Assembly: GCF_003334785.1 (NCBI RefSeq) | Contig: NZ_QOWV01000004.1 | Reading direction: 5' to 3' (one strand) | DNA from: Escherichia coli | Lineage (GTDB): Bacteria; Pseudomonadota; Gammaproteobacteria; Enterobacterales; Enterobacteriaceae | DNA length: 64,000 bases | Shown: positions 622-11,273 of the stretch, piece after piece | How positions within the stretch are numbered: position 1 is the first letter of the stretch | Layout: each line of letters opens with the position of its first letter | The notes under the pieces: generated by a model | The model's database searches: none | What the model was told of the DNA's origin: nothing | What the model saw: only the letters and a program-made list of their open reading frames with translations | Position numbers and translations under genes: made by a program

Positions 622-2052
<1,431 letters not shown>

Positions 2053-2067
2053 GCGAGGTAACAATGA

Positions 2068-2092
2068 ATTCGCCAGACTGTGTCTGGCGAAT
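2068..2092. repeat. Solo palindrome ATTCGCCAGAC-tgtg-TCTGGCGAAT, same family as the yhcG repeats
   Basis: Near-perfect inverted repeat read directly 15 nt after gltD stop; not followed by a T-run. Confidence 0.6.
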
Positions 2093-2611
2093 CAAATTAC
2101 TGACGAAGTGCGCGTTGTTTTCTGGCAAATGCGGCATGAGCGTTTGACCTTTCCTATAATAGGGATAATTTTCAATAAATTGTGCTTTGTTCACCAAGTC
2201 TGATGAGTGAAGCACATCAAGCAATTTCTCATTTACAATCCGTCTCAATTACTTGTTAACACCTCTGACAATACCGATTCTGCAAGCTATTCAGTCTTTT
2301 CATTCCATGTAAATTGTCTCGATATTAATATACAAAATATGAATATAAAAAACCAATATATTATCCTTAATTATCTATATATTTTCCTATTTTTCAGCGC
2401 AAACATTCATGTAATGAATAATTATCACCACAAACCACCTCACCAGCACCTTATTATTCACATGATCGTAACTATAAAATTCATTAAATAAATACATCCC
2501 AGCAAGTTGGCTATTTCTGAACGAGTTATTTATTTACATTCACAAACAGATATATATACTGCTTCAGCTTTTTATTTTAAAAAATAAATTTGTTATTAAG
2601 GATATGTTCAT

Positions 2612-3376
2612 ATGTTTTTCAAAAAGAACCTCACAACAGCTGCTATTTGTGCAGCACTTTCTGTTGCAGCATTCAGTGCCATGGCAACAGATTCAACTGA
2701 TACAGAATTAACTATCATCGGCGAGTATACCCCTGGTGCATGTACCCCAGTTGTTACGGGCGGCGGCATTGTTGACTATGGGAAACATCATAACAGTGCG
2801 CTGAATCCGACCGGTAAAAGTAATAAACTGGTTCAACTGGGCCGCAAAAACAGCACATTAAATATAACCTGCACAGCACCAACGCTAATTGCTGTAACCT
2901 CCAAGGATAACCGTCAGTCGACCATTGTAGCGTTAAACGACACATCCTATATTGAAAAAGCTTATGATACTCTCGTAGATATGAAGGGAACGAAAAACGC
3001 CTTTGGTTTAGGTTCTGCGCCTAATGGACAAAAAATTGGCGCTGCATCCATTGGTATTGACAGGTCTAATGGTGGGATTCACGCGGCGGACGATACAGGT
3101 GAAATTCCTGTCGACCTGATTCAAACTGACCACTGGTCAGCAGCGACCCCCACATGGAAAGCCTCATCTAATGGCGCATTCTGCTCGCTGACAAGTTGCT
3201 CAGCAATCGAGCGCGGTTATTCTGTTGCAAAAACAGGGGAACTGACACCTGTTGCCATTACAGCGGTCACCTTCCCGTTACTGATTGATGCTGCGGTAAA
3301 TGACAATACTATTCTTGGTTCTGATGAAACGATCAAACTGGATGGTAACGTCACTATCAGCGTTCAGTATTTATAA
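2612..3376 (+). CDS. gltF: Fimbrial-like secreted protein (DUF1120 type), first gene of yhc chaperone-usher cluster
   Basis: ATG with AAGGA SD; N-terminal signal peptide; C-terminal ...VTISVQYL resembling YhcF C-terminus; 500-bp AT-rich upstream region. Confidence 0.85.
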   Translation: MFFKKNLTTAAICAALSVAAFSAMATDSTDTELTIIGEYTPGACTPVVTGGGIVDYGKHHNSALNPTGKSNKLVQLGRKNSTLNITCTAPTLIAVTSKDNRQSTIVALNDTSYIEKAYDTLVDMKGTKNAFGLGSAPNGQKIGAASIGIDRSNGGIHAADDTGEIPVDLIQTDHWSAATPTWKASSNGAFCSLTSCSAIERGYSVAKTGELTPVAITAVTFPLLIDAAVNDNTILGSDETIKLDGNVTISVQYL

Positions 3377-3547
3377 GAACTTGTAATACAGTTTTTATTT
3401 TTACGCATTAACCAGTTAGCTATAACTCGGACAGATTATGCCCTATGACATGGTCTGTCTTAATCAATCTCATCGCAAACAGTGCATAACATATATTAAC
3501 AATATGTTTCTGCGTTATTTATCATTATTACAGGAGTTTTAATTTAA

Positions 3548-4222
3548 ATGCTCAGACACATTACATTCACTGTATTTATAACAACATCAATGAATACCTT
3601 AGCCACAGGGATGGTTCCTGAAACATCAGTATTGCTGGTTGATGAAAAGCGTGGTGAAGCTAGTATTAATATTAAGAATACAGATGATCATCCTTCATTG
3701 CTTTACACCACCATTGTTGATTTGCCTGAAAGCAATAAATCAATTCGTTTAATCCCGACTCAGCCCGTTATTCGTGTTGAAGCCGGTCAAGTACAACAGG
3801 TTCGATTTTTACTTCAGGCGACTGTTCCTCTGCAATCAGAAGAGCTGAAACGCGTAACGTTCGAAGGTATTCCACCAAAAGATGACAAGAGCAGCAGAGT
3901 TACTGTTTCAATTCGTCAGGATCTACCTGTACTGATCCACCCGGCTTCCCTGCCGGAAGAGCGAGAGACCTGGAAATTCCTGGAATGGCGTAAAAATGGC
4001 GACCAAATTGAGATTAGCAACCCCAGTAATTATGTCGTTCGTATGACCTTACAATTTAAAACGCTCCCTTCAGGAAAAACGGGGGCTATAAATAAGACCT
4101 ATTTTCTACCACACACCAGTACAACTACTGCATTAACAAACGCTACGGATACAAAAGTCGAGTTTTACCCAGCCAGCCGATATGGTTATCGCGGTAATAA
4201 ATATGTCACTGACTTAAAATAA
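3548..4222 (+). CDS. yhcA: Periplasmic fimbrial chaperone (PapD-like), 224 aa
   Basis: ORF with signal peptide; position between fimbrial subunit and usher. Confidence 0.85.
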   Translation: MLRHITFTVFITTSMNTLATGMVPETSVLLVDEKRGEASINIKNTDDHPSLLYTTIVDLPESNKSIRLIPTQPVIRVEAGQVQQVRFLLQATVPLQSEELKRVTFEGIPPKDDKSSRVTVSIRQDLPVLIHPASLPEERETWKFLEWRKNGDQIEISNPSNYVVRMTLQFKTLPSGKTGAINKTYFLPHTSTTTALTNATDTKVEFYPASRYGYRGNKYVTDLK

Positions 4223-4242
4223 CTTTGCCTGGAGCGACAAGG

Positions 4243-6624
4243 ATGTTAAAAAAAACGTTACTGGCCTACACCATTGGTTTTGCCTTTTCTCCCCCAGCCA
4301 ATGCAGATGGTATAGAGATTGCCGCTGTTGATTTTGATCGGGAAACATTAAAATCACTAGGTGTAGATCCTAATATATCGCATTATTTTTCCCGTTCAGC
4401 CCGTTTTTTGCCAGGTGAATATTCACTGATAGTATCAGTAAATGGCGAAAAAAAAGGCAACATTGCTACGCGCTTTGATGAAAATGGCGACATTTGTCTT
4501 GATCAGGCATTTCTGCAACAAGCCGGTTTAAAAATTCCTTCTGAAGAAAAAAATGGCTGTTACGACTATATATTGTCCTACCCGGGTACCACAATCACAC
4601 CATTACCTAACCAGGAAGCGTTAGATATTATCGTTTCACCACAGGCGATCATTCCCATAGGGTTGGATCTCACAAACGCAGCAACTGGTGGAACAGCTGC
4701 GCTGCTAAACTACTCTCTGATGAGCAGCCGTGCAGAATTTTCTAATGGGAGTTCGGACTACTCCCAGGCTGCACTTGAAGGCGGGATTAATATTAATGAC
4801 TGGATGTTACGCAGCCATCAGTTCCTTACACAAACAAATGGCACATTCAGTAACCAGAACTCGTCAACCTACCTTCAACGTACCTTTACAGATCTTAAAA
4901 CACTCATGCGAGCAGGTGAAGTTAACCTCAATAATAGCGTGTTGGAAGGAGCCAGTATTTACGGTATCGAAATCGCACCGGACAACGCATTGCAAACCAG
5001 CGGCAATGGTGTGCAAGTTACTGGTATAGCCAACACCTCTCAGGCTCGTGTCGAGATTCGTCAACAAGGAGTTTTAATTCATTCCATTCTGGTTCCTGCG
5101 GGCGCATTCACTATCCCTGATGTACCTGTTCGCAATGGTAATAGTGATCTTAATGTCACCGTTGTCGAAACAGACGGTAGTTCGCACAACTATATTGTTC
5201 CCTCCACCCTGTTTAATCAGCATGTAGAAAGCTTCCAGGGTTATCGCTTCGCGATAGGGCGGGTAGACGATGACTATGACGAATCACCTTGGGTAATTAG
5301 TGCATCGAGCGGATGGAATCTGACACGCTGGAGTGCAATGAACGGCGGCGTTATCGTAGCAGAAAATTATCAGGCGGCATCAATCCGGTCGAGTCTGGTT
5401 CCCCTGCCCGATTTAACAGTGAGCAGCCAAATTAGTACATCGCAGGATACGAAAGACTCACTGCAAGGACAGAAATATCGTCTTGACGCGAACTACAATC
5501 TCCCATTTTCACTTGGGCTAACAACCAGCCTCACTCGATCTGATCGCCATTATCGCGAACTGTCTGAAGCGATTGATGATGATTATACCGATCCGACTAA
5601 AAGCACTTATGCGCTTGGTTTAAACTGGTCTAACTCCATTCTGGGTGGTTTCAACATCAGTGGCTATAAAACATATAGTTACGACGGTGACAATGACTCA
5701 AGCAACCTTAATATTAACTGGAACAAAGCGTTCAAACACGCCACGGTTTCCGTCAACTGGCAGCATCAACTTAGTGCTTCAGAAAATAATGAAGACGATG
5801 GTGATCTGTTCTACGTCAACATCAGTATTCCATTTGGCAGATCAAACACCGCCACACTGTATACTCGCCATGACGATCATAAAACCCACTATGGTACTGG
5901 TGTCATGGGAGTCGTCTCAGATGAGATGTCCTACTATGTGAATGCTGAACGAGATCACGACGAACGTGAAACGAGCTTGAACGGCAGTATCAGTTCCAAT
6001 CTCCATTACACCCAAGTCAGCCTTGCCGCAGGAGCAAGCGGCAGTGATAGCCGTACTTACAACGGTACGATGTCAGGTGGTATTGCCGTACATGATCAGG
6101 GAGTGACCTTTTCACCGTGGACTATCAATGACACTTTCGCCATCGCAAAAATGGATAACAATATTGCAGGTGTCAGAATTACATCTCAGGCAGGCCCAGT
6201 ATGGACAGATTTTCGGGGTAATGCCGTCATTCCATCAATCCAGCCGTGGCGAACATCAGGAGTTGAGATCGATACCGCCAGCTTGCCAAAAAATGTCGAT
6301 ATCGGTAACGGCACAAAAATGATCAAACAAGGCCGTGGTGCAGTAGGGAAAGTCGGATTCAGTGCGATAACACAACGCCGTGCATTACTCAATATCACAC
6401 TTTCCGACGGCAAAAAACTGCCCAGAGGCGTTGCGATTGAAGATAGTGAAGGCAACTATCTGACAACATCAGTGGATGACGGTGTTGTATTCCTCAATAA
6501 CATCAAACCGGACATGGTGCTAGATATAAAAGATGAGCAGCAATCATGCCGTATTCACCTTACATTCCCAGAAGATGCACCAAAAGATGTGTTCTATGAG
6601 ACAGCAACAGGAGAGTGCCAATGA
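4243..6624 (+). CDS. yhcD: Outer-membrane fimbrial usher, about 793 aa
   Basis: Large ORF; start trimmed from TTG at 4225 to ATG at 4243 preceded by GGAG; usher-like size and composition. Confidence 0.85.
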   Translation: MLKKTLLAYTIGFAFSPPANADGIEIAAVDFDRETLKSLGVDPNISHYFSRSARFLPGEYSLIVSVNGEKKGNIATRFDENGDICLDQAFLQQAGLKIPSEEKNGCYDYILSYPGTTITPLPNQEALDIIVSPQAIIPIGLDLTNAATGGTAALLNYSLMSSRAEFSNGSSDYSQAALEGGININDWMLRSHQFLTQTNGTFSNQNSSTYLQRTFTDLKTLMRAGEVNLNNSVLEGASIYGIEIAPDNALQTSGNGVQVTGIANTSQARVEIRQQGVLIHSILVPAGAFTIPDVPVRNGNSDLNVTVVETDGSSHNYIVPSTLFNQHVESFQGYRFAIGRVDDDYDESPWVISASSGWNLTRWSAMNGGVIVAENYQAASIRSSLVPLPDLTVSSQISTSQDTKDSLQGQKYRLDANYNLPFSLGLTTSLTRSDRHYRELSEAIDDDYTDPTKSTYALGLNWSNSILGGFNISGYKTYSYDGDNDSSNLNINWNKAFKHATVSVNWQHQLSASENNEDDGDLFYVNISIPFGRSNTATLYTRHDDHKTHYGTGVMGVVSDEMSYYVNAERDHDERETSLNGSISSNLHYTQVSLAAGASGSDSRTYNGTMSGGIAVHDQGVTFSPWTINDTFAIAKMDNNIAGVRITSQAGPVWTDFRGNAVIPSIQPWRTSGVEIDTASLPKNVDIGNGTKMIKQGRGAVGKVGFSAITQRRALLNITLSDGKKLPRGVAIEDSEGNYLTTSVDDGVVFLNNIKPDMVLDIKDEQQSCRIHLTFPEDAPKDVFYETATGECQ

Positions 6625-7166
6625 AACGGATAATAACAGGATGCCTGCTGCTGAACTTCGCCATGGCCGCTCAGGCAGAGTGTAATATCTCCAGTAGCAT
6701 ACAAAATATCGACTATGGCAAACGAAGTGCTGCCATGCGCCAAGTTGACCGGGGTAAAACAACACAATTAGCAGACAGAACAATCACGCTGGTAATGCAA
6801 TGCGATCAGGACGCTCATATTCGTGTTCAGTTGAATACCGCTAATATTTCCAACAACGGATTTGGATTTGGCCCGAATGGTTCATTAAATCTGATCGCCA
6901 GCGATGCATTTTCAGGTAGTAACAATCTCGACCTGGCGTTAGCCAGTGGCAAAAATGACAATCCGGGCAGCACAGGAACAGCATCAATTAGTACTTCCCC
7001 CAATAATTGGCTGGTGTTTATGCAAAATGGTCAAGAAGTGGTAATTGATAGCGGTAAAAGCGTTAGCCTCACACTGACAATGGCTCCAGCTTTTAAGGAT
7101 GAAGGGGAACTAACCGACATGACAGATATTACAGGCAATCTGACGGTCCTGGTGGAGGCAAAATGA
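6621..7166 (+). CDS. yhcE: Fimbrial-like protein (DUF1120 type), uninterrupted here
   Basis: ATG at 6621 overlapping yhcD stop (ATGA); signal peptide MKRIITGCLLLNFAMAAQA; AGGAG SD. Confidence 0.75.
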   Translation: MKRIITGCLLLNFAMAAQAECNISSSIQNIDYGKRSAAMRQVDRGKTTQLADRTITLVMQCDQDAHIRVQLNTANISNNGFGFGPNGSLNLIASDAFSGSNNLDLALASGKNDNPGSTGTASISTSPNNWLVFMQNGQEVVIDSGKSVSLTLTMAPAFKDEGELTDMTDITGNLTVLVEAK

Positions 7167-7879
7167 ACAATGTAAAATTACTGATTGCCGGAAGTGCCTT
7201 TTTTGCCATGTCAGCGCAAGCCGCTGATAGAGTATCAATTGACGTTAAGGTGACTCTGGAAGCTGCAGCTTGTACTCCAATACTAAGCAACGGCGGAGTT
7301 GTTAACTTCGGTAGTCATTCAGTCAATAGACTTTCAACGCAGCACTACACACAGATTGGAACACGTAATATTAATATGACTATAACTTGCGAATCCGCTA
7401 CCGGCATTGCGATTACCGCTCGTGATACACGAATGGATAGTATGACCACCGGAAAAGATAGTGGGGGTCAGAGTGGTGTAAAATATACCTTAAATGGCGG
7501 AGGTTATATTAGCCAGACAACGCGCTTATTCGGCTTAGGGAAAACAAAAGATAATAAAAATATCGGTAGTTATGCCGTGTTAATTGATAGCAACAACATT
7601 AGTGCCAGCAATGGTAGCCAGACGTTAGCTGTATCAATAGCAGGTGCAGATGCCGTCATAACAGGGCAAAAAAGAGCATGGCAAACGCTCACCGCTTATC
7701 CGCTTGCAGTCGATCAAAGCTATTATTACACCTTTGTAAAACCAGGTGAAACAACCCCAACTCCTGTAACGAACGCCATTATACCGCTTCAGGTGAGCGC
7801 ATCTATCGCGAATGATTTAGGCGGTTCAGAAAAAATCGAACTTGATGGGAAAGCTGTGATAAGCGTAGTCTACTTGTGA
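7163..7879 (+). CDS. yhcF: Fimbrial-like protein (DUF1120 type), 238 aa
   Basis: ATGA overlap with yhcE; signal peptide; C-terminal ...VISVVYL shared with GltF. Confidence 0.8.
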   Translation: MNNVKLLIAGSAFFAMSAQAADRVSIDVKVTLEAAACTPILSNGGVVNFGSHSVNRLSTQHYTQIGTRNINMTITCESATGIAITARDTRMDSMTTGKDSGGQSGVKYTLNGGGYISQTTRLFGLGKTKDNKNIGSYAVLIDSNNISASNGSQTLAVSIAGADAVITGQKRAWQTLTAYPLAVDQSYYYTFVKPGETTPTPVTNAIIPLQVSASIANDLGGSEKIELDGKAVISVVYL

Positions 7880-8063
7880 TAACAATGCCGGACAGGAGTA
7901 CTATCAGGCATTCGTTTTATACGATCGGTTAATGTTTCAGGAAAGCTCTTCGCATATCTTGGGGAAAGTAAATGTAATACGCTGTTCTTAATTGTTCAGT
8001 GCTCACCCCCCAGAGTATAGCTCATTCCATTATTCAACTTAGCTCCATATAAAGGGACAGATA

Positions 8064-9191
8064 ATGGAATCGCTCTCAGAAGGAACCACAGCAGGCTACC
8101 AGCAAATCCACGACGGTATTATTCATCTGGTCGATAGCGCCCGGACGGAAACGGTACGTAGCGTTAACGCGTTAATGACCGCGACGTACCAGGAAATTGG
8201 CCGACGAATTGTCGAATTTGAACAAGGTGGCGAGGCCAGGGCTGCGTATGGTGCGCAGCTAATCAAGCGACTATCAAAGGATTTATGTCTAAGGTATAAG
8301 CGTGGGTTCTCTGCAAAAAACTTACGCCAAATGAGGCTTTTTTACCTCTTTTTTCAACATGTTGAAATTCGCCAGACAATGTCTGGCGAATTAACACCAT
8401 TGGGAATTCCGCAGACACCGTCTGCAGAATTCCCATCGGCAAAGATTTGGCAGACGCTGTCTGCCAAATCTTTCCCCTTGCCCAGGTCCACCTACGTCCG
8501 TTTACTTTCCGTTAAAAACGCTGACGCCCGCAGCTTTTATGAAAAAGAGACGCTCCGCTGTGGCTGGTCTGTTCGCCAGCTAGAGCGGCAAATTGCGACC
8601 CAGTTTTATGAGCGGACACTACTGTCACATGACAAATCAGCCATGCTGCAACAACACGCTCCTGCCGAGACGCATATTCTTCCGCAACAGGCGATACGCG
8701 ATCCCTTTGTGCTCGAATTTCTGGAATTGAAAGATGAATATTCAGAATCCGATTTTGAGGAGGCGCTGATCAACCACCTGATGGATTTCATGCTGGAACT
8801 TGGGGATGATTTTGCCTTTGTTGGTCGGCAGCGAAGGTTACGCATTGATGACAACTGGTTTCGTGTCGATCTGCTGTTTTTCCACCGCCGTTTACGCTGC
8901 CTGCTAATCGTCGATCTAAAAGTGGGCAAATTCAGCTATAGCGATGCCGGACAGATGAATATGTATCTCAACTACGCCAAAGAGCACTGGACGCTACCGG
9001 ATGAAAATCCGCCCATCGGTCTGGTTCTCTGTGCAGAGAAAGGAGCCGGAGAAGCGCATTATGCTCTGGCAGGTTTGCCTAACACCGTTCTGGCAAGCGA
9101 ATATAAGATGCAACTACCTGATGAGAAACGACTCGCAGATGAACTCGTTCGAACACAGGCGGTGCTAGAGGAAGGCTATAGACGCCGTTAA
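8064..9191 (+). CDS. yhcG: DUF1016 / PD-(D/E)XK nuclease-superfamily protein, 375 aa
   Basis: ORF 375 aa; C-terminal region has candidate D ... (I/V)DLK PD-(D/E)XK motif (RVDLLFF ... LIVDLKVGK); contains in-frame 39-bp repeats. Confidence 0.85.
   Translation: MESLSEGTTAGYQQIHDGIIHLVDSARTETVRSVNALMTATYQEIGRRIVEFEQGGEARAAYGAQLIKRLSKDLCLRYKRGFSAKNLRQMRLFYLFFQHVEIRQTMSGELTPLGIPQTPSAEFPSAKIWQTLSAKSFPLPRSTYVRLLSVKNADARSFYEKETLRCGWSVRQLERQIATQFYERTLLSHDKSAMLQQHAPAETHILPQQAIRDPFVLEFLELKDEYSESDFEEALINHLMDFMLELGDDFAFVGRQRRLRIDDNWFRVDLLFFHRRLRCLLIVDLKVGKFSYSDAGQMNMYLNYAKEHWTLPDENPPIGLVLCAEKGAGEAHYALAGLPNTVLASEYKMQLPDEKRLADELVRTQAVLEEGYRRR
8360..8480. repeat. 3x tandem 39-bp repeat, each unit carrying a 13-15 bp-arm palindrome (core CAGAC-N-GTCTG), in frame inside yhcG
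   Basis: CAGAC cores at 8373, 8412, 8451 (39-bp period); palindromes 8366-8392, 8402-8434, 8441-8473; encodes three 13-residue peptide repeats (x-I-x-Q-T-x-S...). Confidence 0.75.
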
Positions 9192-9204
9192 TTTCAGCGG
9201 TTTC

Positions 9205-9232
9205 GAATTCTGCAGACAGTGTCTGCAGAATC
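9205..9232. repeat. Solo palindrome GAATTCTGCAGAC-ag-tGTCTGCAGAAT, same family
   Basis: Inverted repeat read directly, 14 nt after yhcG stop. Confidence 0.6.
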
Positions 9233-9250
9233 TTTAAAACGAACTAAGTT

Positions 9251-10583
<1,333 letters not shown>

Positions 10584-10587
<4 letters not shown>

Positions 10588-11273
10588 AGCACCGCCTTTT
10601 TCATCGCTGTGTTGTACCACTGACAAATGTGCTCAAGACGCGTGATTGCAGAACCGACCGTCACCGCCCACGCGCCGTGGCGCATCGCATCCGCCGCCTG
10701 AGCAGGCGTGTTGTAACGCCCTTCGGCAATCACCCGACATCCGGCGTCGCTCAACGTTTTCACCAGCGCCAGATCCGGCTCTTCTGGCGTTTCAGGCGTG
10801 GTATAGCCAGAAAGCGTAGTGCCAATAATTTCGGCTCCCAGCTTTTGGCATGCCAGGCCGTCTTCCGGCGTTGAGCAGTCGGTCATCGCCAGTAAACCGT
10901 GATGGTGAATACGTGCCAGCAGCGTTTCAACAGGCACCGGACGCGGGCGGTCGGTGCCGTCAATGGCGATAATGTCCGCGCCCGCCTGCGCCAGCGCATC
11001 AACATCTTCAATATAGGCCGTGATGCGTACCGGAGAATCCTCCAGATCGCGTTTCACAATTCCAATAATCGGCACGCTCACCACCGCACGCGTGGCTTGC
11101 AGATTTGCCACACCTTCAATGCGAATGGCAACCGCGCCCGCCTGTTCTGCCGCTAATGCCATGGCGGCGACGATTTCGGGTTTATCGAGCGGGCTGTCCG
11201 GAACCGGCTGGCAGGAGACAATCAGGCCACCGTTAGCAGCGATTTTTTGATCCAGTTGTGCAAGTAACGACAT
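10584..11273 (-). CDS. nanE: N-acetylmannosamine-6-phosphate 2-epimerase, 229 aa
   Basis: Start trimmed to MSLLAQLD with AAGGGAAG SD; operon context. Confidence 0.9.

Follow-up and report, generated by a model that had tools for sequence, protein, structure and literature searches.

What is a short palindrome doing that occurs five times around the gltD-yhcG locus of Escherichia coli and, in the window (the whole stretch of DNA analysed here, 64 kb), nowhere else? The five copies listed in an earlier note on this DNA are real and all lie where it placed them. They have the form CAGAC-N3-GTCTG with ATT…AAT outer arms and start at 2068, 8367, 8406, 8445 and 9207. The core CAGACNNNGTCTG gives five matches in the window as compared to 0.01 expected (100 dinucleotide shuffles), a search with the 25-nt pattern allowing up to three mismatches finds the identical five sites and no others, and the other 55 kb of the window contain zero copies. 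The features of the locus are:

2068-2092, no strand assigned: PAL1, a solo palindrome, ATTCGCCAGACTGTGTCTGGCGAAT, i.e. ATTCGCCAGAC-TGT-GTCTGGCGAAT, 15 nt past the gltD stop (2052)
2612-7879, plus strand: gltF-yhcA-yhcD-yhcE-yhcF fimbrial cluster, between PAL1 and yhcG
8064-9191, plus strand: yhcG, 375 aa, with DUF1016_N at residues 19-184 and the YhcG_C PD-(D/E)XK nuclease domain at 208-360
8360-8398, plus strand: in-gene unit 1, core 8367-8391, ATTCGCCAGAC-AAT-GTCTGGCGAAT, coding for E-I-R-Q-T-M-S-G-E-L
8399-8437, plus strand: in-gene unit 2, core 8406-8430, ATTCCGCAGAC-ACC-GTCTGCAGAAT, coding for G-I-P-Q-T-P-S-A-E-F
8438-8476, plus strand: in-gene unit 3, core 8445-8469, ATTTGGCAGAC-GCT-GTCTGCCAAAT, coding for K-I-W-Q-T-L-S-A-K-S
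9207-9231, no strand assigned: PAL5, a solo palindrome, ATTCTGCAGACAGTGTCTGCAGAAT, i.e. ATTCTGCAGAC-AGT-GTCTGCAGAAT, 15 nt past the yhcG stop

One detail of the earlier description needs adjusting: the distance of 15 nt after gltD holds, and that after yhcG, given as 14 nt, is 15 nt. The outer arms are ATTC…GAAT in four copies and ATTT…AAAT in the third in-gene copy. The in-gene copies are spaced by 39 nt (13 codons), and each 39-nt unit is almost wholly palindromic (arms of 15-18 bp), in frame, and encodes I-x-QT-x-S; the extended arms of unit 2 are GGGAATTC…GAATTCCC, and those of unit 3 span 18 bp with one mismatch. The same five copies are present in K-12 MG1655 (3360632, 3368130, 3368169, 3368208 and 3368970), where the RefSeq annotation has no repeat feature at these sites, and Rfam gives no match at E <= 1 in positions 1500-10000 of the window, in agreement with the suggestion that this is not a catalogued E. 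coli repeat. Intrinsic terminators, already doubted, were rejected: a T-run is absent at all five sites and a terminator scan calls none of them. BLAST of the in-gene array against 5396 E. coli genomes finds 1-6 places per genome (both strands counted); judged by these counts per genome, copies at the gltD-yhcG locus would account for the places.

By its domains, YhcG is a member of the YhcG/DUF1016 family (Pfam E-values of 1.3e-36 for DUF1016_N and 1.6e-56 for YhcG_C), and it matches the PADLOC candidate defence family PDC-S02 (2.8e-131). The palindromes encode residues ~101-137, which are modelled as low-confidence coil (coil at 97-124, pLDDT <50 at 103-114), and according to this model the palindrome-coded segment is a disordered loop in the DUF1016_N domain. 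Palindromic DNA translated in frame in a tolerant part of a host protein is also what defines the Rickettsia palindromic elements, which are 100-150 bp long, restricted to Rickettsia and scattered over many unrelated genes; the element here differs in being 25-39 bp long, in occurring across phyla and in keeping to one fixed site of one protein family.

This breadth was seen when species genomes were scanned with the palindrome pattern, which returned at least 120 loci in most bacterial phyla. Among the matches listed, all three free arm pairs are complementary in 86 of 138 (chance: 1 in 64), and 109 of 143 strict matches (window copies included) fall in DUF1016 ORFs, with ATT as an in-frame codon in 103 of those 109. 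Also among the matches listed, the reading frame is 0 for 133 of 140 in-gene copies, genes carry 1-4 copies, and the spacing is a multiple of 3 in 44 of the 46 cases measured. For an unbiased estimate, we picked 61 DUF1016 genes by nuclease-domain peptides, blind to palindromes, and searched the 231 nt ending at the Trp codon of LSWSH. A palindrome with 9-18-bp arms was found at the same position in 51 of the 61 genes (84%), as compared to 3.7% of codon-shuffled windows and 2 of 132 (1.5%) other windows from the same genes; the remaining ~16% of sampled genes have lost it. The family comprises >21,000 clusters at 50% identity, and of the 57 I.QT.S motifs present in 150 cluster representatives, 36 fit a palindrome fully when judged at the protein level (14 expected).

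The palindrome is an integral part of the coding sequence in most YhcG/DUF1016 nuclease genes, across phyla. Its general form is AATT, a variable arm, a CA(C/G)TG centre, the complementary arm and AATT, in one to five tandem in-frame units, and we found no earlier description in the literature of a palindrome inside YhcG genes. In E. coli the in-gene copies are the primary feature; the solo copies are secondary, Salmonella and Citrobacter having the in-gene copy without a solo copy. The local repeat family that had been proposed is a real family, and local in E. coli, but its in-gene members are not incidental, and the view of it as a bracket around the yhc cluster is incomplete or wrong.

What has been conserved is the pairing. 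In an alignment of the palindromes picked from the unbiased gene sample (whose existence was tested separately, as above), each of the 12 stem pairs shows changes on both sides while pairing holds in 93.5% of cells, as for a structure-conserved hairpin in general; there are 144 double-sided changes versus 45 in shuffles, and none of 500 shuffles reaches the observed number. Arm sequences differ from subfamily to subfamily, and within a gene even from unit to unit, with complementarity kept, and differing cores were confirmed on DNA in two loci (L167 and L168). Since the arms vary yet stay Watson-Crick complementary, it is the peptide (I-x-QT-x-S-x-E/K/Q) that follows the DNA and not the reverse, a rare case in which self-complementary DNA sets the sequence of part of a protein.

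An ordinary operator family, bound by a host transcription factor that serves the gltBDF/yhc/nan region, would explain symmetric sites near gene ends in a region with known regulators. We consider it very improbable: the same element is found in DUF1016 genes of unrelated phyla and of viral contigs, where no E. coli regulator is at hand, and three of the five sites lie deep in coding sequence. Moreover, a dimeric factor needs no complementarity at the variable arm triplets, yet these triplets covary, and across subfamilies the covariation spans the whole stem.

The pairing also bears on whether the element is read as DNA or RNA. At the inner pairs there are 5 G·U as compared to 28 unpaired combinations, and the sense-strand mismatches (17 G·T, 36 A·C and 81 other, a small sample) show no G·U tolerance of the kind expected for an RNA hairpin on the transcribed strand. 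With Watson-Crick pairing strict and G·T nearly lacking, a hairpin or cruciform of the DNA is favoured over a hairpin of the RNA; because the mismatch counts are small, this sequence-based conclusion, that the element works at the level of DNA and not in the mRNA, is only moderately supported. A hairpin in the yhcG transcript could serve mRNA stability or processing, cause translational pausing, or inhibit the nuclease as a cis-encoded RNA like those of type III toxin-antitoxin systems. The predicted RNA hairpins are indeed very stable (-15.6 to -24.1 kcal/mol, z-scores of -4.3 to -7.7), gene-proximal copies (5'UTR, in-gene, and 8-16 nt past the stop) share a transcription unit, and tandem and non-coding arrays recall antitoxin RNA repeats. 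Against these stand the lack of G·U enrichment, the absence of a T-run and of any Rfam match (tRNAs alone were matched in 16 loci with orphan copies), and the position of PAL1, which follows another gene, gltD. In a type III system, a tandem array of direct RNA repeats precedes the gene of the endoribonuclease that processes it, whereas the layout here is palindromic and intragenic. We regard an RNA hairpin as quite unlikely, and with G·U pairs nearly absent the RNA-processing role raised in the earlier note is disfavoured as well; the other two suggestions of the note, a protein-binding site and MITE-like copying, may hold.

Additional extragenic copies are rare (1 of 49 in the unbiased sample), therefore any role that needs flanking sites is not general. 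In separate lineages such copies lie past the -10 box and ahead of the ribosome-binding site, or follow the stop by 8-16 nt. Orphan copies adjoin HsdS, HsdM, AlbA_2 and Fic genes, in whose company DUF1016 is usually found, and there are non-coding arrays in restriction-modification islands with no DUF1016 remnant; these non-coding copies retain the outer ATT/AAT and the GAC…GTC core. A GAC-N3-GTC-like palindrome tied to the control of a restriction-type nuclease gene recalls the C-boxes of restriction-modification controllers, as does the copy that a few lineages have between promoter and ribosome-binding site. C-boxes, however, precede a helix-turn-helix C gene and are recognised in duplex form, whereas the main site here is intragenic, there is no C protein, and positions that are not conserved show covariation.

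Copies made locally, with arms that match, are seen in E. coli and in the loci L013, L064, L073 and L204. At the E. coli locus, the variable arm triplet of PAL1 (CGC/GCG) is that of in-gene unit 1, and the arm of PAL5 (CTG/CAG) is near-identical to that of unit 2 (CCG/CAG); from this agreement with units 1 and 2 it follows that copying within the locus produced the solo palindromes. Four haplotypes of the gltD-nanQ interval are common among 5426 complete E. coli genomes: A (1122 genomes, with the fimbrial cluster), C (946), D (722) and B (the rest). Haplotype junctions coincide with the right edge of palindromes: the A/C junction is the right edge of PAL1, and in BL21/C43-type genomes yhcG is cut exactly at the right edge of unit 3. 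Haplotype C keeps a perfect solo palindrome with no yhcG at the locus. PAL5 is found in haplotypes A and B and is absent from Salmonella and Citrobacter; the outgroup arrangement is a simple vertical gltD-yhcG-nanQ, and both solo copies are Escherichia novelties. Among yhcG alleles that are otherwise ~99% identical, divergence is limited to a patch at residues 84-136, and copy number differs between close alleles via in-frame deletions. The palindromes explain the breakpoints of this four-way structural polymorphism, in which, among other things, the yhc fimbrial cluster and yhcG itself are present in some genomes and missing from others.

Junctions on palindromes, solo copies bearing the arms of in-gene units, orphan copies beside HsdS, HsdM, AlbA_2 and Fic genes, and a patchy allele mosaic centred on the palindromes are also what one would expect of a mobile or cassette-junction element, that is, a REP/MITE-like unit or a recombination site for exchange of the nuclease half of yhcG, the fimbrial cluster or restriction-modification accessory genes, with the nuclease possibly mobilising the palindrome. 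We consider this unlikely. The in-gene position is fixed in 84% of genes, unlike mobile DNA, the copy number per genome is tiny, there is no transposase-type partner, the outgroups have the simple vertical gene order, and where DUF1016 genes of other taxa are truncated, the ends fall at many positions rather than at the palindrome in particular.

Known elements of this kind were compared one by one. REP sequences are imperfect palindromes of ~35-40 bp with a conserved GTAG head, extragenic, present in hundreds per genome and tied to a Y1 HUH transposase (RAYT, TnpA-REP). REP/BIME elements resemble the present family as hairpin palindromes linked to one nuclease-type gene, with copies beside the gene, often just past stops, that are rearrangement hot spots. 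They were rejected: the consensus here, ATT…CAGAC…GTCTG…AAT, does not fit the REP consensus, the five copies are not dispersed but lie within 7.2 kb with the primary copy inside coding sequence, and the partner gene encodes DUF1016_N and YhcG_C PD-(D/E)XK domains, not a RAYT. In attC sites (57-141 bp with extrahelical bases) and IS200/IS605 ends, as here, the stem sequence drifts but the structure and a few fixed bases persist, and some lie directly after an ORF or at gene-segment junctions. Integron attC sites, which have an R''/L''-L'/R' architecture and come in cassette arrays next to an IntI integrase gene, were rejected as well, the palindromes here being short, perfect, in frame in a gene and without bulges; the interval contains no integrase ORF (ORF list and MG1655 annotation) and no Y1 transposase.

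Our preferred reading, to which we assign a probability of roughly 0.4, is that the five sites are copies of one DNA palindrome integral to YhcG/DUF1016 genes, with the gene's own nuclease as candidate reader. The element travels with the gene across phyla, therefore the recognising factor is most likely the gene's own product, and judging from sequence our best guess is the YhcG-type nuclease itself. The palindrome would act as a hairpin on single strands or as a cruciform under supercoiling, and YhcG, a nuclease that in its fold comes nearest to NucS and enzymes of the Holliday-junction-resolvase type, would act in cis by binding or nicking the palindrome once extruded. Likely uses would be limiting its own expression, or breaks behind the exchange in patches and the changes in copy number that are observed; the effect visible in E. 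coli would be palindromes serving as recombination junctions of the gltD-nanQ interval. More tentatively, though still as a possibility, the family at large may be a self-contained nuclease with its own DNA hairpin, reading the cruciform or hairpin in its own gene and in sporadic extragenic copies, and either throttling expression or making breaks that drive cassette exchange and loop diversification.

YhcG and the palindrome are linked by association only. A K-12-type allele, in which Arg replaces a near-invariant Trp, and the yhcG-less haplotype C both keep their palindromes, which tells against a reading by YhcG, and the conservation of the outer ATT/AAT and QT.S core could come partly from protein constraints. 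Template-switching at quasi-palindromes, whose correction by this route is established in E. coli, would give the same strict covariation without selection. A neutral, self-maintaining quasi-palindrome is a serious rival, which we hold to be possible but doubtful: an ancestral palindrome in a tolerant loop, in which template-switching copies arm changes and slippage alters copy number, would be functionless but perturb replication, and so mark deletion and recombination endpoints. Such hot spots, too, keep their arms Watson-Crick complementary with changes on both arms, and the near lack of G·T intermediates, the disordered coding loop, the in-frame deletions between close alleles, the loss from ~16% of genes, the rarity of flanking copies, and persistence beside a probably defective allele and in genomes with no yhcG at the locus all fit. 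However, template-switching is a mutational process and not an element, and it predicts neither fixed outer and central bases nor copies at new sites; the copies in 5'UTRs, just past stops and in non-coding arrays of restriction-modification islands, and the constant outer ATT/AAT and GAC…GTC core of the non-coding ones, are left unexplained, and 84% retention at one position in a family of >21,000 clusters is hard to square with a deletion-prone neutral structure. If the neutral reading is right, it would be striking that template switching has kept a palindrome going over very long evolutionary distances.

DUF1016/YhcG is among the commonest uncharacterised nuclease families, and to our knowledge it has no known substrate; the gene-fixed palindrome is a concrete, directly testable candidate substrate or operator. 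Were the self-contained module real, a candidate defence nuclease would be inherited throughout the bacteria together with a cis element of a new kind. We also note that members of the family often occur in Type I restriction-modification operons, integrative conjugative elements and prophages.

By direct reading and an inverted-repeat scan, we identified five palindromes of the type ATT-NNN-CAGAC-NNN-GTCTG-NNN-AAT in the window, three of them in yhcG (8064-9191, + strand), one in each of three 39-nt in-frame repeats (units 1-3), and two as solo copies (PAL1 and PAL5; distances from ORF positions):

2068-2092: palindrome 1 (PAL1), 15 nt 3' of the gltD stop
8367-8391, 8406-8430, 8445-8469: palindromes 2-4, within yhcG, at 39-nt spacing
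9207-9231: palindrome 5 (PAL5), 15 nt 3' of the yhcG stop

An earlier note had reported these five palindromes near gltD and yhcG, and they are present, the last one lying one nucleotide further from the yhcG stop than the 14 nt it gave. The 13-nt core has 5 matches in the window vs 0.01 expected, and the 25-nt pattern with up to 3 mismatches recovers the same five sites and no others in the 64 kb. The in-gene units are palindromic over their full 39 nt, with arms up to 18 bp, and single-strand folding of the palindromes is very stable (-15.6 to -24.1 kcal/mol). The arm triplets differ from unit to unit (CGC, CCG and TGG); PAL1 has the variable arm of unit 1 (CGC/GCG), and PAL5 has CTG/CAG as compared to CCG/CAG in unit 2.

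All five copies also occur in K-12 MG1655, whose record annotates no repeat feature in this region, so a catalogued K-12 repeat, a comparison that the note had proposed, is ruled out. An intrinsic terminator is ruled out as well (no T-run at the five sites and no call by a terminator scan), in agreement with the note's view that these are not canonical terminators, and an Rfam search gave no match to a known RNA family. Using BLAST, the in-gene array was found in only 1-6 places per E. coli genome (both strands counted), which is the number expected from the copies of this locus, so there is apparently no dispersed family in E. coli. The repeat family suggested earlier is real, but it is intrinsic to YhcG/DUF1016 genes (DUF1016 is the nuclease family encoded by yhcG) and is not an E. 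coli intergenic repeat.

Scanning one genome per species for ATTNNNCAGACNNNGTCTGNNNAAT gave at least 120 loci; those among the matches listed come from Proteobacteria, Bacteroidota, Firmicutes, Verrucomicrobia, Planctomycetes, Acidobacteria, Gemmatimonadota, Spirochaetes, Actinobacteria and one Methanosarcinales genome. Complementarity extends to all three free arm pairs in 86 of the 138 matches listed (chance: 1 in 64), and to two of three in another 38. Using an iterated HMM, 109 of 143 strict matches listed (window copies included) were placed inside DUF1016 ORFs, and in 103 of these 109 the ATT is an in-frame Ile codon. With a relaxed detector, 1-4 copies were found per gene among the matches listed, 133 of 140 in frame 0 and 44 of 46 measured spacings being a multiple of three. 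The residue after Ile covaries with those after Ser according to base-pairing (V-AQ, W-AK, F-GK and R-GE), and a few copies are read in other frames with the DNA core unchanged. Because pairing dictates the residue covariation and the other-frame copies keep the core, the comparison of sequences shows that the conserved entity is DNA rather than peptide. In viral contigs the motif occurs within DUF1016 genes and also in the form of orphans (copies outside DUF1016 ORFs).

Since the species scan was ascertained by the palindrome pattern itself, genes were refetched via nuclease-domain peptides only. A palindrome (at least 9 paired positions with at most 1 mismatch, in a 231-nt window ending at the Trp codon of the LSWSH motif) is present in 51 out of 61 distinct DUF1016 genes of this sample. 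With shuffled codons the rate is 3.7%, and elsewhere in these genes 2 of 132 windows have one. The cores vary by subfamily with complementarity kept (CAGACAsTGTCTG, GAGACagcGTCTC, GTCGTATCAcTGATACGAC, GGTCAACAagcTGTTGACC, GTCACCAAgTTGGTGAC and GCTACACAcTGTGTAGC), the outer AATT and the CA(C/G)TG centre being mostly retained; protein look-ups added two more subfamilies, one with GATTCGAGACGCGcTGCGTCTCGAATC and one with four tandem TCCACAACAgCGTTGTGGA-type units. In an alignment of 41 distinct palindromes, two-sided changes are seen at all 12 stem pairs and 93.5% of cells are paired, a covariation reached by 0 of 500 shuffles. Among I.QT.S motifs from a protein search (150 cluster representatives; the family has ~21,000 clusters), 36 of 57 are fully palindrome-compatible at the codon level vs 14 expected. 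We conclude that the E. coli sites are the local form of a DNA palindrome that is conserved in structure and built into YhcG/DUF1016 genes, together with two locally derived solo copies. We found no earlier description of this palindrome in Rfam, the K-12 annotation or the openly searchable literature. A G+C-rich DUF1016 subfamily (L219, L223-L227) has a second in-gene palindrome, TCGAGGCGGCGCGCaaGCGCGCCGCCTCGA, which encodes IEAARKRAAST in the N-terminal domain, ~250 nt 5' of the Trp codon.

The yhcG product contains DUF1016_N (residues 19-184) and the YhcG_C PD-(D/E)XK nuclease domain, and matches the PADLOC candidate defence family PDC-S02 (NCBIfam has no YhcG model). Units 1, 2 and 3 encode I-R-QT-M-S-G-E, I-P-QT-P-S-A-E and I-W-QT-L-S-A-K, respectively, and close homologues have one, two or three units. 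As the AlphaFold model (mean pLDDT 84) gives coil at residues 97-124 and pLDDT below 50 at 103-114, the repeats encode a predicted disordered loop. At residue 139 (window 8475-8483), YhcG of the window reads FPLP-R-STYV, as in MG1655, where 119 of 122 homologues have the near-invariant Trp of the LPWS/LSWSH motif; because Arg replaces this Trp, the allele of this E. coli haplotype (form A below) may be functionally impaired. A stationary-phase RNA, G0-10703, is reported to be divergent from yhcG and to overlap its 5'UTR by 128 bp (window ~7900-8063; PMC7967276).

We propose, with a probability of about 0.4, that the palindrome would form a DNA hairpin or cruciform, which a YhcG-type nuclease would read in cis, for self-limitation or break-driven exchange. 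Because the arm triplets differ among the E. coli units, one reader cannot read the triplets by sequence; that each unit is nevertheless symmetric speaks for pairing within a strand and against a duplex operator bound by a dimer. The stem could instead act as an RNA hairpin, which we consider quite improbable: sense-strand arm mismatches comprise 17 G·T, 36 A·C and 81 others, and the inner stem pairs of the unbiased alignment have 5 G·U vs 28 unpaired cells (~1/4 expected from random single changes, a rough estimate). As wobble pairs are not favoured and Rfam has no matching family, the evidence, though small in numbers, points to DNA-level pairing or to a mutational process on DNA. Such a process could be neutral maintenance of the palindrome by template switching, which we regard as doubtful, though the strongest of the competing explanations.

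About 48 copies lie outside DUF1016 ORFs among the matches listed (pattern-ascertained loci). Most of them are in intergenic gaps with no DUF1016 remnant by tblastn; remnants were found at only a few loci, so DUF1016 pseudogene remnants are rejected as the general origin of orphans. A location mainly just 3' of stops is weakly supported (of the intergenic orphans that could be measured, 11 of 36 have a stop within 40 nt and 8 of 34 a start). Among 41 orphan-neighbour proteins, Pfam found three HsdS, one HsdM, two AlbA_2 (three with its companion domain HATPase_c_4) and two Fic, which is the usual niche of DUF1016 genes, known to reside in Type I restriction-modification/defence islands (PMC9881135). 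Several unrelated lineages have a copy flanking a DUF1016 gene, placed either between its -10 box and ribosome-binding site or 8-16 nt past the stop; at L013, L064, L073, L204 and in E. coli the flanking copy shares the in-gene variable arm; flanking copies are ruled out as a general feature (1 of 49 in the unbiased sample). In the DUF1016 gene of L013 (Eubacteriales), a TAG occupies the position of the conserved Trp codon (10619-10621), and palindromes are nevertheless kept within the gene as well as in its 5'UTR and past its stop. Arrays of three or four palindromes that lie outside any recognisable DUF1016 gene were found at four loci, the first two being truly non-coding because stops occur in every frame:

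L074 12385-12511: non-coding, Fic gene adjoining
L061 570-646: non-coding, abuts an ATG
L064 119-275: 5' of a DUF1016 gene, frame open across the copies
L018 4305-4631: in an ORF of unassigned identity

The window segment matches E. coli chromosomes at 100% identity; the window is K-12-like without being MG1655 itself. Four forms of the gltD-nanQ interval are common in 5,426 complete E. coli genomes:

Form A (1,122 genomes): gltD-PAL1-gltF/yhcADEF-yhcG-PAL5-nanQ
Form B: gltD-yhcG-PAL5-nanQ, with a T-run hairpin 3' of gltD and without PAL1
Form C (946 genomes, including NU14 and an APEC O1:K1:H7 isolate): gltD-one palindrome-nanQ, without fimbrial genes and yhcG
Form D (722 genomes, BL21/C43 type): yhcG broken off, with an unrelated 470 bp behind it

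In Citrobacter koseri and Salmonella enterica, gltD-yhcG occupies this place, with one in-gene palindrome each and no solo copy, so form B is ancestral, and both the solo copies and the three-unit array are new in Escherichia. The right edge of the palindrome is precisely where A and C cease to be homologous, so C looks like A minus everything between PAL1 and PAL5. In form D, yhcG ends directly behind the final T of in-gene palindrome 3 and its 3' part is replaced by the 470-bp segment (L165 3616-4085, E. coli C43(DE3)), whose 101-aa ORF is annotated 'transposase' (WP_000639208.1) and has no match in Pfam or NCBIfam. A cassette or mobile junction element, as such edges might suggest, seems unlikely to us. 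Breakage at the palindrome edge is not universal, since eleven N-terminal-only DUF1016 genes elsewhere end at varied positions. Two E. coli yhcG alleles share ~99% identity over residues 1-83 and 137-375 but diverge strongly at 84-136, the palindrome patch (window 8313-8471), where the other allele resembles that of Pseudocitrobacter; the patch appears to be a local tract of horizontal transfer or gene conversion with the palindromes at its centre.

Form B has a hairpin with a T-rich tail 3' of gltD (L001 1655-1700), where A and C have a palindrome instead (window 2053-2100), so the end of the gltBD transcript may differ among E. coli lineages. The yhcE gene is intact in the window (6615-7166) and interrupted by IS5 in MG1655.
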